From Candidatus Latescibacterota bacterium (lineage in GTDB: Bacteria; Latescibacterota; UBA2968; GCA-2709665): 64,000 nt of DNA. The notes beneath the pieces are model-generated. The model ran no database searches, was not told the origin of the DNA, and saw only the letters and a program-made list of their open reading frames with translations. The DNA lies in the NCBI GenBank assembly GCA_965203805.1, contig OZ241917.1, forward strand, positions 352,001-416,000, written 5' to 3'. The position numbers and the translations under genes are program-made. Each line of letters opens with the position of its first letter. Position 1 is the stretch's first letter. This document shows, piece after piece, positions 23,544 to 60,133 of this stretch.

Positions 23544-24230
23544 TCAGGTTGGAGACGCAGGCCAGTCGAACCCGTAGCCGACCCCTCTAACCGTGGAAAT
23601 GACGCCGTTGAAGCCGGTCAACTTCGCCCGAAGCCGCGCCACGTGGACGTCGACGGTGCGCATGCCGCCGTGATAATCGTAACCCCAGATGCGGTCAAGC
23701 AAGTCCGAACGGGTGAAGACGCGTCCCCGGTGGACGACAAGGTACTTCAATAGCTCGTACTCCTTCAGCGTCAGGTCGACGAGCGCCCCGCCGATCCTGA
23801 CTTCGTACCGGGCCAGGTTGATGACCAGGTCGTCCAGCCGGATCGCATCCCGTTGGTCCCCGCGTCCGAGGATGAGTCGCAGGCGGGTTTCCAGTTGCCC
23901 GGGGGAGTAGGGACGGGTGATGAAGTCGGTTATTCCGGCGGAGAAGTCGAGGTTCGAGACGCGAGCTTCGTCGGTGATCAGCAGCAGTGGCGTGTTTCGT
24001 GCGCCCGGAGACCGGAGCAGGCGTTGAACGCGATCAGGCAGTTCGCCGGGGAACGTCTCGTCGTCGACGACAATCAGATCAGCGGGATTGCCCGGCACGC
24101 TGGGGGCATCGGGCATGACCGTGAAATCCGGGTTCCAGGCCGGGCGAGTCACGGTATGACCGATCGATTCCAGGTCTGACTTGAGTTGTCTGCCCTGTGT
24201 CTCGCCGGCAAGCAGCAGGATGTGGGACAT
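23544..24230 (-). CDS. OmpR-family response regulator with atypical receiver (GlnR-like)
   Basis: Winged helix LT.KEYELL..L, RTVDVH..RLR.KL, TVRGVGY; receiver lacks the beta1 acidic pair and has R for the conserved K. Confidence 0.88.
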   Translation of the reverse strand: MSHILLLAGETQGRQLKSDLESIGHTVTRPAWNPDFTVMPDAPSVPGNPADLIVVDDETFPGELPDRVQRLLRSPGARNTPLLLITDEARVSNLDFSAGITDFITRPYSPGQLETRLRLILGRGDQRDAIRLDDLVINLARYEVRIGGALVDLTLKEYELLKYLVVHRGRVFTRSDLLDRIWGYDYHGGMRTVDVHVARLRAKLTGFNGVISTVRGVGYGFDWPASPT

Positions 24231-29744: not shown

Positions 29745-32297
29745 TCACCCTGCATGAGAAGGGGTCAGCCTCGCGCTCCGAATCCTGTCAATCCGGAACG
29801 TCCGCTCGCCTTTGCGGTGCCTGCAAAAGCCGCAAAGTACGCCATGATCTTCAAAGATCGGTTCGATCGAACGAGATGAGGTTCTCGCGACGCGTTCGTC
29901 GCGGTAGTCGATTTCCAGGCCGAGCCGATGGTCTATGGCGTATCCGATGAGGAATTTCACGTCGGCCTCGGCGGTGGCCGGATTCGCGCCGGGGTATCGC
30001 CTGAGGGCCTGGAATCCGTCGTGCGGCCGCCCGCTATTGAACAGGGTTTCAAAGGTCTCGCGATAGTCGCTCCGGGCGTCCTGGCATTCGCTGTCCGGAA
30101 TGCTTCTCAGGCTTCGGCGGAGACGTCTCAGCAGACGTTCCAGGCCCTCAGGCAGCGGAACCGACCTGGCGGCGAAGGTCTTTGCCGCGGTTTCGAGAAA
30201 CCCCGCCAGCTGTAACAATTCCGGACCCTCCAACACCATCCGTTGTTGTTCTTCGTTTGATTCTTCGGCAGTAATATTCGGCATATAGCCGCACCCGTTC
30301 AAGGCATCCACGAGTTGCTCGACGCGCGTAGACGGGTCGAGCGCTGCCGCTGTGGGTGAGAGTCGAACGCCGAGAAGGGATGAGATCTTGCTCTGAACGA
30401 AGAGTTCGTCCAGCAGTTCGGGCCGTTCACTGACGAGATAGCCGGACGCCTGCGCGATTTCAATTTCACCGTGTTTGCTTTCACACTCCCGGAGCAGGGC
30501 GTCCACCACCGACGGCAATCCGGTGGCGCTGTGGTCCCGAAGAAATGCTCTGAGTGAGGCGCCGTCCCAGCCCCTGCTCATGGCCATGTGAACGGATTGG
30601 GGAGATATCAGGAATTTTGCCAGGACGTCGACTTCCTTGAGTTCCGCTATGGAAAAGAGTCGGATGTACAGGGCGGATGGCAAATCCGGCGGAGAGAGAA
30701 TCTCAAGATTTGGTTGCAGGACGAAATTTCCGTCGGTGCGGCCCGCGGTCTCTACCGACGTACTCTCAGGTTTTCGTCCGTTGAGAAGCGCTGCGCCCGG
30801 GCCGGTCAGTCTGAAGACTGCGGGGTGCCCCGGTTCGAGGGCCTCACCGAACGATTCAGGATTTCCCAGGCCGATCAGCCCCATCCATGTCAGCGCCGAC
30901 ACGAAGATGCGCCGCAGCAGTTCGTCCGCGCCGCCGCCGATCAGGTTCCGCCCGGACGGGGGACGTCCATCGAGATGTGCGAATGTCTCGGACCGGCGCG
31001 CCAGCAGGACGTAAAAATCCGGGTACGAGATCCAGCTGTTTTCGGGACAGCGGGCAAGGCAGTCGAGCAGGTCGCGGCGAAGGGCTTTCAGGGTGTCATT
31101 CCTGTTGCGGATGCGCGCGCCGGAACGTTCGGTGGTCCACTCGTTCCATCGATCGGATTCGCGCCAGAGTCTGAGTACGGCGTTTCGGATGTCATGGGGG
31201 CGGGAAAGCCGGTCGGCGGCGTCTTCCGCAAGCCGCCATATTCTCGCGTCGCAACGGATGAGTCCGGCGGATTCCGCGAACAGGAGCAGGAATTCGGAGT
31301 ACCCCGGTTCCGCGTGTCCCCGGTAGTATTTACTGACGTCCCGAAGCCGGGCCCGGGATACGCCGCCGTGTTTGAGTGCGCGCGGCCTGCGCTGCTCGAT
31401 GAACCCGAGAAGCGTGCAGAGATCGGGTACCAGGCAGGACGTCTGCTCCCGTGTTCGGGAGGGGTTCGGTCCGCTGCTTGCAACGACCGACTCGACCGTG
31501 TCCTCGATCCTGTCATCAAGGGCCTGAATCTCAGGCTTCAGGTCTGAAGCGAGTTGGAGGGGCGTATCTGCCAGGAGCCGATCCGTGGTGTGGAAAAACA
31601 AAGGCGTCTTCCAGACGATCTCGTCCAGTGCACGAAGCCCGCCCTCTCCCATGTCACACATGATTTCATCCTGGGTGATGGCATCCCTGGCCAGGACACG
31701 ATCGAGGATGGCTCTCTTGGCTTCCGGCAGATCGATGATGTAGGCCTTCAGATGATCCGGATCCAACAACCGCTTGCGAACGGCGCGCGTCACAAAGACA
31801 CGGCGGGAGTCTTCGAACGGGCAGCCCAGTTCTCTCGCAAAGTCGCGAAGCAGACCGACGGATCGAGATTGCATCACGCGGCGGAGCCGACCCTGGTTCC
31901 CGGCTCTCAGTGGGATTGCCTTGAGGACCGATTCCGGAATGCCGACCAGGCAATGGTCCGCCCCGAGTGTTTCGACGTCTTCGAAGACCAGACCGAGTTC
32001 GGAAACCGCGTCTTGCATGGTCTGGAAGCGGTGGGTGAATCCCGCGCCTAACTCGTCAATGGCATCTTCCTTGAGCAACTCGCCTCCCTCCTCGGCGAGA
32101 CTGACGACGTACTCCCGATGTCCGGGCTGAAGCGCGTCGAGTCGTTCGCGGACCCGCGCCGGGTTGGAAAGGTGGCGACAAAGCTGGTCTATCAGCACCG
32201 CCTTGTTGGCGCCGCGGTGAATCGGGAGGTGTGTCGAAGCAGCGATGCGGTGGAGCCTGTCAGTGGACTGGTGGCTGAGGACGGCTCGCAATTTCAT
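29745..32297 (-). CDS. XPB/Ssl2-like helicase-associated domain protein with C-terminal WYL domain
   Basis: LQPN.EI..P.........L..IAE.........IS..SV..A...G......FL...S...LP..V (Helicase_C_3-like); C-terminal AI.....LEI.Y......R.IEP......L.GFC..R..ERTFRIDRI (WYL); no Walker A or DExH motif. Confidence 0.85.
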   Translation of the reverse strand: MKLRAVLSHQSTDRLHRIAASTHLPIHRGANKAVLIDQLCRHLSNPARVRERLDALQPGHREYVVSLAEEGGELLKEDAIDELGAGFTHRFQTMQDAVSELGLVFEDVETLGADHCLVGIPESVLKAIPLRAGNQGRLRRVMQSRSVGLLRDFARELGCPFEDSRRVFVTRAVRKRLLDPDHLKAYIIDLPEAKRAILDRVLARDAITQDEIMCDMGEGGLRALDEIVWKTPLFFHTTDRLLADTPLQLASDLKPEIQALDDRIEDTVESVVASSGPNPSRTREQTSCLVPDLCTLLGFIEQRRPRALKHGGVSRARLRDVSKYYRGHAEPGYSEFLLLFAESAGLIRCDARIWRLAEDAADRLSRPHDIRNAVLRLWRESDRWNEWTTERSGARIRNRNDTLKALRRDLLDCLARCPENSWISYPDFYVLLARRSETFAHLDGRPPSGRNLIGGGADELLRRIFVSALTWMGLIGLGNPESFGEALEPGHPAVFRLTGPGAALLNGRKPESTSVETAGRTDGNFVLQPNLEILSPPDLPSALYIRLFSIAELKEVDVLAKFLISPQSVHMAMSRGWDGASLRAFLRDHSATGLPSVVDALLRECESKHGEIEIAQASGYLVSERPELLDELFVQSKISSLLGVRLSPTAAALDPSTRVEQLVDALNGCGYMPNITAEESNEEQQRMVLEGPELLQLAGFLETAAKTFAARSVPLPEGLERLLRRLRRSLRSIPDSECQDARSDYRETFETLFNSGRPHDGFQALRRYPGANPATAEADVKFLIGYAIDHRLGLEIDYRDERVARTSSRSIEPIFEDHGVLCGFCRHRKGERTFRIDRIRSARLTPSHAG

Positions 32298-32349
32298 AAG
32301 GCACCGTTGGACGTTTCGTTGTCGAATCCGGAGCTGTGGGCAATAAATG

Positions 32350-32443
32350 AAAAAAACCGACTTTCACACGCCGGTCGTTCATCCCGACGCCCTGTACGGA
32401 CATCGACGGCCAGAAGGGCGACCATCTTTCCGGAACAGGACGC
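32350..32443 (-). ncRNA. Candidate ~94-nt small RNA or attenuator leader
   Basis: Begins 7 nt after a consensus-like -10; long three-segment hairpin with CCCUUC loop, then ACCGGC/GUCGGU terminator and U-run. Confidence 0.55.
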
Positions 32444-32449
32444 TAAAGC

Positions 32450-32478
32450 AGTATATATTAATCAGTAAGCCTTGTCAA
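32450..32478 (-). promoter_or_regulatory. Strong sigma70-type promoter
   Basis: Minus strand TTGACA-17-TATACT. Confidence 0.8.
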
Positions 32479-32600
32479 GCTGCAATGCCCGGGTCCGGCC
32501 TGAAGAGAAAAGAGACGGAATTAAGGCAGTCAGTTCGTATATTGTCGCGCCATTTTTACCGTTGTTGCGCGCGCAATAACGGAAATCACGCAGAGGACCG

Positions 32601-33200
32601 ATGCGACGACTTCATGCCCGGCAGGTTGTGGCAAGGACGCTTTCGGCGGTATTCAGTCCCCCGCTGGCAGCGGCCGGCCTGTTGACGATGCTGATCTGGC
32701 GGCTCCCGGCGCCAACGATGCAACGCGCCGGCTGGCTGGGCGCCGGTTTGCTGTTTGCGACCTGTCTGCCCACGCTGTACGTGGGTCTTCTTGTCGCGCG
32801 CAGGGAGGTGGATGGATTCTATATTGCGGTGCGATCCCGCCGGCGGAAGCCGCTGCTGGTGAGTTCCGCGAGTTGCCTCGCGGGATTTGTCGTATTGTGG
32901 GCGACGGATGCGCCGCCGCTGATAAGCGGTTTTCTGCTCGGCTGTTTTTTCCTGGGGTTGGTTGCCGCCTGGACGACCGTGCGATGGAAGATCAGCCTGC
33001 ACGCTGCGGGTGTGTGCGGCCCCCTGGCGATGCTGCATCTCTTGCTCGGACCTTCGTCCGTCTACTGGCTGCCGCTGCCGCTGGCGGTCTGTTGGGCGCG
33101 CGTTGTTATTGGCGCGCACTCGATGAGGCAGGTTGCAGCGGGGTGCGGGGTGGGCTTTGTCGTTGTTTGGGTTGTGGCCGCCATATATCTGGCCGCCTGA
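32601..33200 (+). CDS. PAP2-like membrane protein
   Basis: WKISLH and WARV....HS..QV..G motifs; multiple TM segments. Confidence 0.8.
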   Translation: MRRLHARQVVARTLSAVFSPPLAAAGLLTMLIWRLPAPTMQRAGWLGAGLLFATCLPTLYVGLLVARREVDGFYIAVRSRRRKPLLVSSASCLAGFVVLWATDAPPLISGFLLGCFFLGLVAAWTTVRWKISLHAAGVCGPLAMLHLLLGPSSVYWLPLPLAVCWARVVIGAHSMRQVAAGCGVGFVVVWVVAAIYLAA

Positions 33201-33429
33201 ACCCTCGCAATTGCCTTCCGCCCGGATTCACCGGCATAAGCCCCGGACTGATAACCTCAACTCAACAAAGCAGCATCGCTGTTCCCGCGACAAGACCCTC
33301 CGAATCGGGCCGAAGAGGTCGTCGAAATGGACATTTTTCCGTTTACGTCCTGTGACCTGAAGGTTCCTGAAAATCCGACGTTTAATCGCCTGAAAAATGA
33401 CGAATCAAGGTGAGGCGTTGAAGGATGAG

Positions 33430-59951: not shown

Positions 59952-60133
59952 GAAAGGGGCATCGTTGCGAATTAGGATAGCCGTTGACACGTTGATGCAG
60001 AATCATATATTGATGCGGTTTGCGACGTGCCGTACGGATAACAGGTTGCCTGCATCGTCGGCAGATTGGCGGGGTATGTTCGGGACAGGGCGCCGATGCG
60101 GATTCGAACACGGAATTGTAAAAGGGGGAATCT

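Follow-up and report, generated by a model that had tools for sequence, protein, structure and literature searches.

The stretch of DNA upstream of an 850-aa gene with Helicase_C_3 and WYL domains holds a promoter, a strongly folding segment and a terminator, and this locus raises the question of whether they form a new structured RNA beside a nucleic-acid-sensing protein or a leader that controls the gene itself. The preliminary description had seen in them a 94-nt structured RNA of no recognised family and had offered an attenuator, an independent small RNA or an RNA ligand of the WYL protein as explanations. Our answer is a correction, in which the apparent structured RNA reads as a promoter and a short terminator with the probable relic of a mobile element between them. 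We analysed the window, i.e. the whole stretch of 64,000 nt, and compared the upstream regions of the 30 best orthologues of the gene, 15 in the genus of the window and 15 in other genera. The features on which the argument rests are the following.

29745..32297, minus strand: gene of 850 aa whose Pfam domains are Helicase_C_3 at residues 526-646 and, near the C terminus, WYL at residues 787-843
32298..32349, minus strand: stretch of 52 nt between the T-run and the ATG
32350..32376, minus strand: intrinsic-terminator-like hairpin (GACCGGC, 8-nt loop, GTCGGTT) with a run of 7 T, from a pattern scan
32385..32443, minus strand: imperfect palindrome of 59 nt, a three-stem hairpin of -30.7 kcal/mol, from the fold and the comparison with relatives
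32450..32455, minus strand: -10 hexamer TATACT after a 17-nt spacer, from reading the sequence and a consensus scan
32473..32478, minus strand: -35 hexamer TTGACA, from reading the sequence and a consensus scan, present in 15/15 genus genomes
32601..33200, plus strand: divergent ORF of 199 aa with a weak PAP2 match, whose opposite-strand start codon is also found in relatives

Since the neighbour on the plus strand diverges, the promoter and terminator lie between two divergent genes, in about 300 nt of intergenic DNA. The promoter, first described as TTGACA-17-TATACT, was confirmed at the minus-strand coordinates given above and agrees with the consensus at 11 of 12 positions with a spacer of 17 nt, as in sigma-70-type promoters. 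It was the sole sigma-70-like site found by the consensus scan within 31800-33300 (shuffled sequences yielded 0.3 +/- 0.6 sites), GCTTTA lies directly 3' of TATACT on the minus strand and is followed by the long imperfect palindrome, and transcription is predicted to start near 32444-32443. TTGACA-N16-18-TATA[AC]T occurs at just 22 sites in the genome of 5.87 Mb, and 129 sites reach at least 11 of 12 promoter positions. Moreover, 16 of 51 tRNA genes have a promoter match of at least 10/12 no more than 120 nt upstream (random 120-mers, 11 of 2000), all 16 with a perfect TTGACA and TAnnnT and nearly all with a 17-nt spacer, which indicates that the promoter of the WYL gene is of a type in use in this organism, as ahead of tRNA genes.

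The terminator also stood as first described, with its stem at 32376-32355 and its T-run ending at 32350 on the minus strand, 52 nt from the ATG (32297), and it is conserved in the genus. It has the G+C-rich stem-loop and the U-run directly after it that define an intrinsic terminator, and six core stem pairs form in 14/14 distinct terminator sequences from the 15 genus genomes; four of the six pairs never vary, and the other two vary between A-U and G-U only. No covariation in the stem above shuffled controls was found among the 14 distinct sequences, and the predicted hairpin is backed by conservation and wobble-compatible changes only. Hairpin energies run from -7.5 to -11 kcal/mol across the genus. 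The U-run reads UAUUUU in 4/15 genomes, in three of which the A pairs with U and lengthens the stem, and termination may be weak or absent in these four genomes or in G006, where the hairpin follows the -10 most closely. As for terminators elsewhere in this genome, a T-run of at least five lies within 60 nt downstream of 17 of 51 tRNA genes (random 60-mers, 164 of 5000).

Between the T-run and the ATG, the 52-nt stretch holds no clear Shine-Dalgarno sequence, as had been claimed, and M1, K2, L3 and R4 of the encoded protein are invariant in 15 aligned homologues. The claim that the gap holds no second promoter likewise agrees with our scan, which detected no sigma-70-like site in it and found the conserved promoter to be the only such site upstream of the gene in 4/4 genomes scanned (G000, G013, G008 and G014), with the limit that weak promoters or promoters of other sigma factors in the gap would escape detection. 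In G013, an insertion of about 330 nt parts the terminator from the gene and has no sigma-70-like site inside it, and in G008 the ATG comes only some 30 nt after the T-run. Because there is no other sigma-70-like promoter in the four genomes and the gap in G008 is so short, the mRNA of the gene most likely starts at this promoter and reads through the terminator.

A pattern search recovered the promoter together with the 6-bp hairpin/U-run terminator ahead of the 850-aa gene in 15/15 genus genomes. No promoter-terminator module was seen by reading (no formal scan) at the 15 loci of other genera, and the gene there closely follows a co-directional ORF, or a tRNA gene in G024. Of the 168 genomes of the phylum, 53 have the gene, among them 21/21 of family f1 and 31/31 of family f2, and the other 115 lack it. 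Within the genus, the terminator stem starts at the following distances from the -10 hexamer, counted from the last base of the hexamer.

15 nt, 9/15 genomes: ancestral layout
5 nt, G006: about 10 nt of the leader missing
74 and 75 nt, G000 and G001: hairpin of 59-60 nt
86 nt, G007: diverged homologous hairpin
204 nt, G005: unrelated MITE alone
239 nt, G012: hairpin of the 59-nt type plus the unrelated MITE

Leader insertions of 59-190 nt thus sit at the transcript start in 5/15 genomes. The ancestral transcript would be about 35-40 nt long, made up of some 10 variable nucleotides, the 6-bp stem with its purine-rich loop of 7-8 nt, and the U-run. Invariant in the 47-column leader alignment are the columns of the stem, some of those of the loop and four T in the run; the 5' leader columns vary, and a conserved single-stranded 5' seed is absent, as columns 1-13 differ among the genomes. 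RNAalifold, run on seven uninterrupted leaders up to the ATG, returned the terminator hairpin only and no conserved alternative (antiterminator) fold. A conserved leader peptide is absent from the alignment of genus leaders as well: the ATG of GGATGG is replaced by ATA in G008, and the other leader type, found in eight genomes (G010, G014, G007, G004, G002, G005, G006 and G009), lacks it. By BLAST, the 146-nt element has no second copy in this genome (best other match, E 0.21) and no copy outside the genus among the 61 genomes searched. As a side observation made by eye, a -10-like pause element, TAGGAT, occurs in the leader of some genomes.

We favour, with a probability of about one half, a promoter-proximal terminator that attenuates the 850-aa gene and carries a mobile-element (MITE) relic in its leader. 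The near-consensus sigma-70-type promoter would drive the Helicase_C_3/WYL gene throughout the genus, the transcript would meet the short intrinsic terminator almost at once (ancestrally starting 15 nt after the -10), most transcripts would stop at the U-run, at about 35-40 nt ancestrally and about 94 nt in this genome, and read-through RNA alone would reach the 850-aa gene. Since the leader has neither an alternative fold nor a leader peptide, read-through would be a fixed leak that sets low expression, or it would be raised by a trans-acting factor. The MITE would have inserted at the 5' end of the transcribed region, lost its central part and be decaying there as a tolerated passenger. The sequence features, the pattern in which they are conserved and the status of the hairpin as an insertion are shown by the data, whereas we infer the start site, termination, read-through and the MITE origin of the window's copy. 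Of the explanations offered earlier, attenuation is the best remaining one. The promoter is real and the terminator conserved; the seven uninterrupted leaders contain no cis switch.

The hairpin between promoter and terminator is the most striking part of the locus. The predicted fold of the 101-nt RNA reproduced the claimed stems of 9, 4 and 8 bp, with hairpin pairing from G32443 to T32387, together with the terminator, and at -45.8 kcal/mol it is far more stable than shuffled sequences (-30.9 +/- 3.1 kcal/mol, z -4.79, 0/200 as stable). The lack of a known RNA family was borne out too, as Rfam 15 gave 0 matches at gathering scores in the whole window and a relaxed search of 32200-32650 gave two matches only, at the chance level (E 4.7 and 6.6). 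The hairpin is present in G000, G001 and G012 only, whose proteins are 88-93% identical, and a diverged homologue occupies the matching leader position in G007, whose protein is 72% identical; it is absent from 11/15 genus genomes, in which the gene and the promoter-terminator module are intact. The site is therefore polymorphic, filled in G000, G001, G012 and G007 and empty, with a 15-nt leader, in 9/15. Within the G000 clade, the closest one, the aligned sequences show 7 and 9 changes in 60 positions of the hairpin, 4 and 5 in 52 of the UTR, 1 and 0 in 35 of the promoter and none in 35 of the terminator, so by these counts the hairpin is the fastest-changing leader segment there. The idea of a conserved 94-nt structured RNA is contradicted by this distribution and rate of change and by the homology of the hairpin to a MITE derivative. 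An alignment of orthologue upstream regions with a covariation check, as proposed in the preliminary description, upheld the conservation of promoter and terminator (15/15) but gave no covariation and no conservation of the hairpin.

When characterizing the origin of the hairpin, we found its stem motif CTGTYCCGGAAA in 16 copies in the genome and the reverse complement in 20, with about 0.7 expected for each. A full repeat copy of about 165 nt with terminal inverted repeats matched 75 BLAST segments in this genome, at least 10 of them full length, and a profile built from 11 copies found 63 loci at E <= 0.001, 27 of which are at least 140 nt long. The G007 hairpin matched this MITE profile (nhmmer E 8.1e-6, search space about 6 Mb) and scored 56-68 against all 11 full copies, where shuffled sequences scored about 17 +/- 3 and 0/1000 reached the score for each; from these matches it is clearly an internally deleted MITE copy. 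The window hairpin aligned locally with the G007 hairpin, flanks excluded, at a score of 38 (shuffles 13.5 +/- 2.5, 0/5000). Against the profile, it had no match at E <= 10 in the genome search and a weak one (E 2.6) in the right place and orientation when the window alone was searched; against the 11 individual copies, it clearly outscored shuffles in two cases only (0 and 5 of 1000 as high), the remaining nine giving 29-154 of 1000. Because the direct profile match is not significant, the MITE origin of the window hairpin rests on transitive homology via G007. No target-site duplication is visible at the window hairpin, which has TA on the left side only, and full MITE copies mostly carry TA on both flanks. 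Set against the ancestral leader of 15 nt, the hairpin is inserted sequence, and from the comparisons above it is probably a decayed, internally deleted MITE copy.

In addition, a second, unrelated MITE lies directly after GCTTTA in G012 and G005. Two unrelated MITEs at one spot of the leader favour an insertion hot spot, which would be more economical than an ancestral RNA domain lost many times. Copies or remnants of the second MITE are also present elsewhere in the intergenic region of G009 and G006. Separately, sequences like the ends of this second MITE were noticed by eye upstream of the promoter in G013 and G004.

The opposite view, that the 59-nt hairpin is an ancestral functional RNA domain (a sensor, a protein-binding site or the partner of an antiterminator) that was repeatedly lost, draws on its very stable fold (z -4.79), on energies that still lie between -27 and -35 kcal/mol in each of the three carriers after 7-9 changes, on the homologous hairpin at the same leader position in the distant G007 and on a possible alternative pairing with the 5' arm of the terminator. 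This pairing of GCCGTCG with CGAC(C)GGC is possible in the sequence, as first noted, but it lies outside the minimum free energy and centroid structures and is not conserved, the segment reading GCCATCG in the two closest relatives (G001 and G012). The C-rich loop CCCUUC, for which an anti-SD-like role had been suggested, fared no better, as it reads CCCGUCG in the same two relatives. With the hairpin absent from 11/15 genomes that keep the gene and the module, with a G007 copy that is a clear MITE derivative and an unrelated MITE at the same spot in G012 and G005, and with the fastest evolution of any leader segment and no Rfam match, we consider such a domain very improbable. A humbler role of the hairpin, such as 5' stabilisation, may nevertheless exist.

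Further, the promoter and terminator might together be an independent gene for a small RNA acting in trans, as a regulator or as a ligand of the WYL protein, about 35-40 nt long and about 94 nt here. In its favour, the promoter matches those of tRNA genes in strength, the terminator follows cleanly, the module is linked to the gene in 15/15 genus genomes, the terminator loop is purine-rich and moderately conserved, and WYL domains bind single-stranded nucleic acids according to the excerpts of the literature consulted. However, the single-stranded 5' part is variable and is split by the insertions of 59-190 nt in 5/15 genomes, the invariant stem and U-run are what termination itself needs, dnaN-recF and a GmrSD_N gene share the layout without a WYL domain, the 850-aa gene has no other sigma-70-like promoter in the 4/4 genomes scanned, and BLAST found neither a second copy in the genome nor one outside the genus among 61 genomes. 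Since only the stem and U-run are constrained and 5/15 genomes tolerate insertions, a trans-acting small RNA is the less likely reading, and we regard it as rather unlikely. The inverted repeat ACCGRC-N7-8-GTCGGT could also be a DNA operator or a 5' stabilising stem without meaningful termination, for which its highly conserved half-sites without covariation, its position at about +16 to +35, suited to a repressor roadblock, and the hairpin only 5 nt after the -10 in G006, awkward for a terminator, would speak. Yet in 7/15 genomes the stem carries A-to-G changes that preserve pairing in the RNA, as G-U, but leave the DNA repeat asymmetric, and loops of 7 as well as of 8 nt occur across the genus, two points that favour an RNA hairpin over a DNA operator; moreover, the T-run after the stem is conserved with four invariant T, and an operator needs none. 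An operator or stabilising stem thus seems improbable to us.

Promoter-proximal terminators that depend on a trans factor are known from PR'-tR' of phage lambda with its Q protein and from antitermination by cold-shock proteins in E. coli. The attenuating terminator proposed here would resemble them in its strong promoter, its early hairpin with U-run and its lack of an alternative fold, whereas its terminator, at about +16 to +40, lies much nearer the start, and no antiterminator gene or loading site was identified here. With no alternative fold in the leader RNA, control, if there is any, has to act from outside it. With classical attenuators, riboswitches and T-box leaders, the locus shares a terminator between promoter and start codon, but it has no conserved antiterminator pairing, no leader peptide and no Rfam match, and a ligand-binding domain would not fit into an ancestral leader of only about 15 nt. 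A riboswitch, a T-box or a leader-peptide attenuator was considered and rejected, as neither a cis switch nor a leader ORF nor an Rfam score was found. The promoter and terminator are thus real and are kept throughout one genus. They represent a known kind of leader control, and what stands out most, the hairpin, is probably the relic of a mobile element.

Many MITEs and palindromic repeats of bacteria, such as Correia elements, REP/BIME, ERIC and RUP, are transcribed with neighbouring genes (PMC3184786). The family found here is like them a short, non-coding, multi-copy element with terminal inverted repeats that sits in an intergenic 5' region and forms a long RNA hairpin when transcribed, but it is unrelated to them in sequence, as far as looked, and the window copy is deleted, decayed and without a target duplication. 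MITEs land repeatedly at the very start of a transcription unit in Latescibacterota, and the locus gives one of the few concrete views of promoter and terminator usage in this uncultured phylum.

Other genes show the same arrangement. Upstream of dnaN-recF there is again a near-consensus promoter, followed by some 16 nt of leader, a short hairpin and a T-run; this upstream region had a BLAST match in 15/15 genus genomes, with the module read in the 12 recovered by pattern. In this genome, a comparable module is also found roughly 300 nt upstream of a GmrSD_N gene. Genome-wide, the layout of promoter plus early terminator is rare: of 635 promoter-like sites that agree at 10/12 positions or more, 11 have a terminator-like hairpin that starts 5-40 nt after the -10. 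Because dnaN-recF and GmrSD_N share it, nothing ties the leader to the WYL domain, and the excerpts of WYL-domain literature consulted likewise give no reason to tie a leader RNA to this domain. The leader of the WYL gene should therefore not be chased as a new RNA-protein system on structure alone; an early terminator without a cis switch, found before dnaN-recF as well, leaves the modest question of how read-through is set. It is conceivable, though a long shot, that a small DNA-metabolism set (the p52-like/WYL gene, dnaN-recF and the GmrSD-type nuclease), each behind a near-consensus promoter with a terminator about 15 nt downstream and no cis switch, is under a shared trans-acting antitermination or nucleotide-sensing control of replication and repair genes, in which the abundant tiny terminated RNAs might be signals, e.g. 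WYL ligands.

The encoded protein scored above the Pfam cut-offs for both Helicase_C_3 and WYL (WYL 27.2 bits against 21.8) and had a weak NCBIfam match to the N-terminal part of XPB. Its C-terminal WYL domain is what it has in common with PafBC, DriD, CapW, BrxR and the Cas13d accessory protein WYL1, as these are described in the excerpts consulted; unlike the short wHTH-WYL regulators, it has 850 aa and combines an XPB N-terminal-like domain, Helicase_C_3, with roughly 500 N-terminal residues to which no domain is assigned. The predicted structure is of low confidence (pLDDT 62.8, pTM 0.35), and Foldseek with this model found nothing at E <= 0.001; its weak rows to DriD, PafBC, CapW and BrxR appear to rest on the C-terminal part. 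There was no PDB sequence match at E <= 1 and no Tfb2/p52 Pfam match at E <= 10, so, with no solid Foldseek match either, a likeness to p52 is only a lead.

Five RNA runs contain part of the stretch, and contigs of four were placed on it. They gave pieces on the 850-aa gene, reaching 32321 in a relative about 91% identical, and on the divergent gene from 32594 or 32622, with none on 32322-32593; these are low-depth contigs and are uninformative on starts, ends and short RNAs. Downstream of the 850-aa gene, the same strand carries a gene for an AP_endonuc_2 TIM-barrel protein and an FeThRed_B gene.

Ahead of dnaN-recF in the genome G000, to which the window belongs, we found a promoter followed by an early terminator.
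G000:C1:3638861, minus strand, outside the window: dnaN-recF promoter/terminator module (loci L065 and L067).
TTGACA-17-TATATT is followed by a ~16-nt leader, then by a short hairpin of the GGCC type and a T-run; the UTR after these is about 85 nt long. The upstream region had a BLAST match in all genomes of the genus (15/15), and the promoter, including its spacer, showed no differences across the 12 genus genomes in which the module was read.

Similar layouts were also observed at two other places in G000.
G000:C1:5499641, plus strand, outside the window: module upstream of a GmrSD_N gene (loci L066 and L082).
Window ~24542 (G000:376542), minus strand: promoter-like site TTGACT-17-TATATT.
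The first, a near-consensus promoter with a short hairpin and a T-run, is located about 300 nt upstream of the gene, which encodes a 572-aa GmrSD_N (type IV restriction-like) protein. At the second, a 10-bp G+C-rich hairpin begins 13 nt on and is followed by a T-rich tail, and this candidate promoter-hairpin site lies about 240 nt upstream of a response-regulator gene (23544-24230). In addition, two near-identical candidates for small RNAs, both about 70 nt long, were detected.
G000:C1:3439868, plus strand, outside the window: candidate small RNA.
G000:C1:5605497, minus strand, outside the window: candidate small RNA.
Their promoter-like sites match at 11/12 and 10/12 positions, respectively. 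In both, the stretch CCUCCCUCC resembles an anti-Shine-Dalgarno sequence, the terminator stem has 9 bp and there are eight consecutive T.

The region between the 850-aa gene and its divergent neighbour contains a further conserved element, which most genomes of the genus carry some 75 nt ahead of the -35.
Window ~32545-32560, and the same place in relatives, minus strand: conserved block GACAATATACGRAT.
This block may represent either the divergent gene's promoter or a site for a regulator. The same intergenic region has received repeated landings of a second MITE family in relatives.
L035 (genome G012), L045 (G005), L047 (G009) and L046 (G006): second MITE family in the intergenic region.
Members of this family are about 160 nt long with ends AAGCTGTTTCAAAAT..., and G000 holds 16 BLAST segments, four of them full-length (for example, G000:4600778-4600938). 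At L042, a locus of the relative G013, the conserved terminator and the orthologue of the 850-aa gene are set apart by about 330 nt of inserted sequence, and a scan of this insertion for a sigma-70-like promoter found none.

The MITE family of about 165 nt has 63 loci in the whole genome G000, of which 27 are near full length, with inverted ends GTGTCCTGTCCC... and flanks that are mostly TA on both sides. The window's share is one weak fragment.
Window 60051-60094, minus strand: weak fragment of the ~165-nt family (E 0.0027, window searched alone).

For the 850-aa protein (window 29745-32297, minus strand), a low-confidence structural model weakly matched chains of the TFIIH subunit p52 in Foldseek (E 2e-3 to 1e-2). 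WYL regulators were also matched weakly, and the C-terminal part seems to account for these latter matches. A true XPB helicase is encoded in G000 far from this gene (5403325-5404959; 854 bits vs a cut-off of 610). One possibility is that the 850-aa protein represents a bacterial, p52-like XPB partner with WYL fused to it. An orthologue with 43% identity was found in G024 (L031 / L061), whose genus lies in the sister family. Ahead of this orthologue is a tRNA gene that has a TTGACA promoter of its own, and a run of eight T is located about 90 nt before the ATG of the orthologue.
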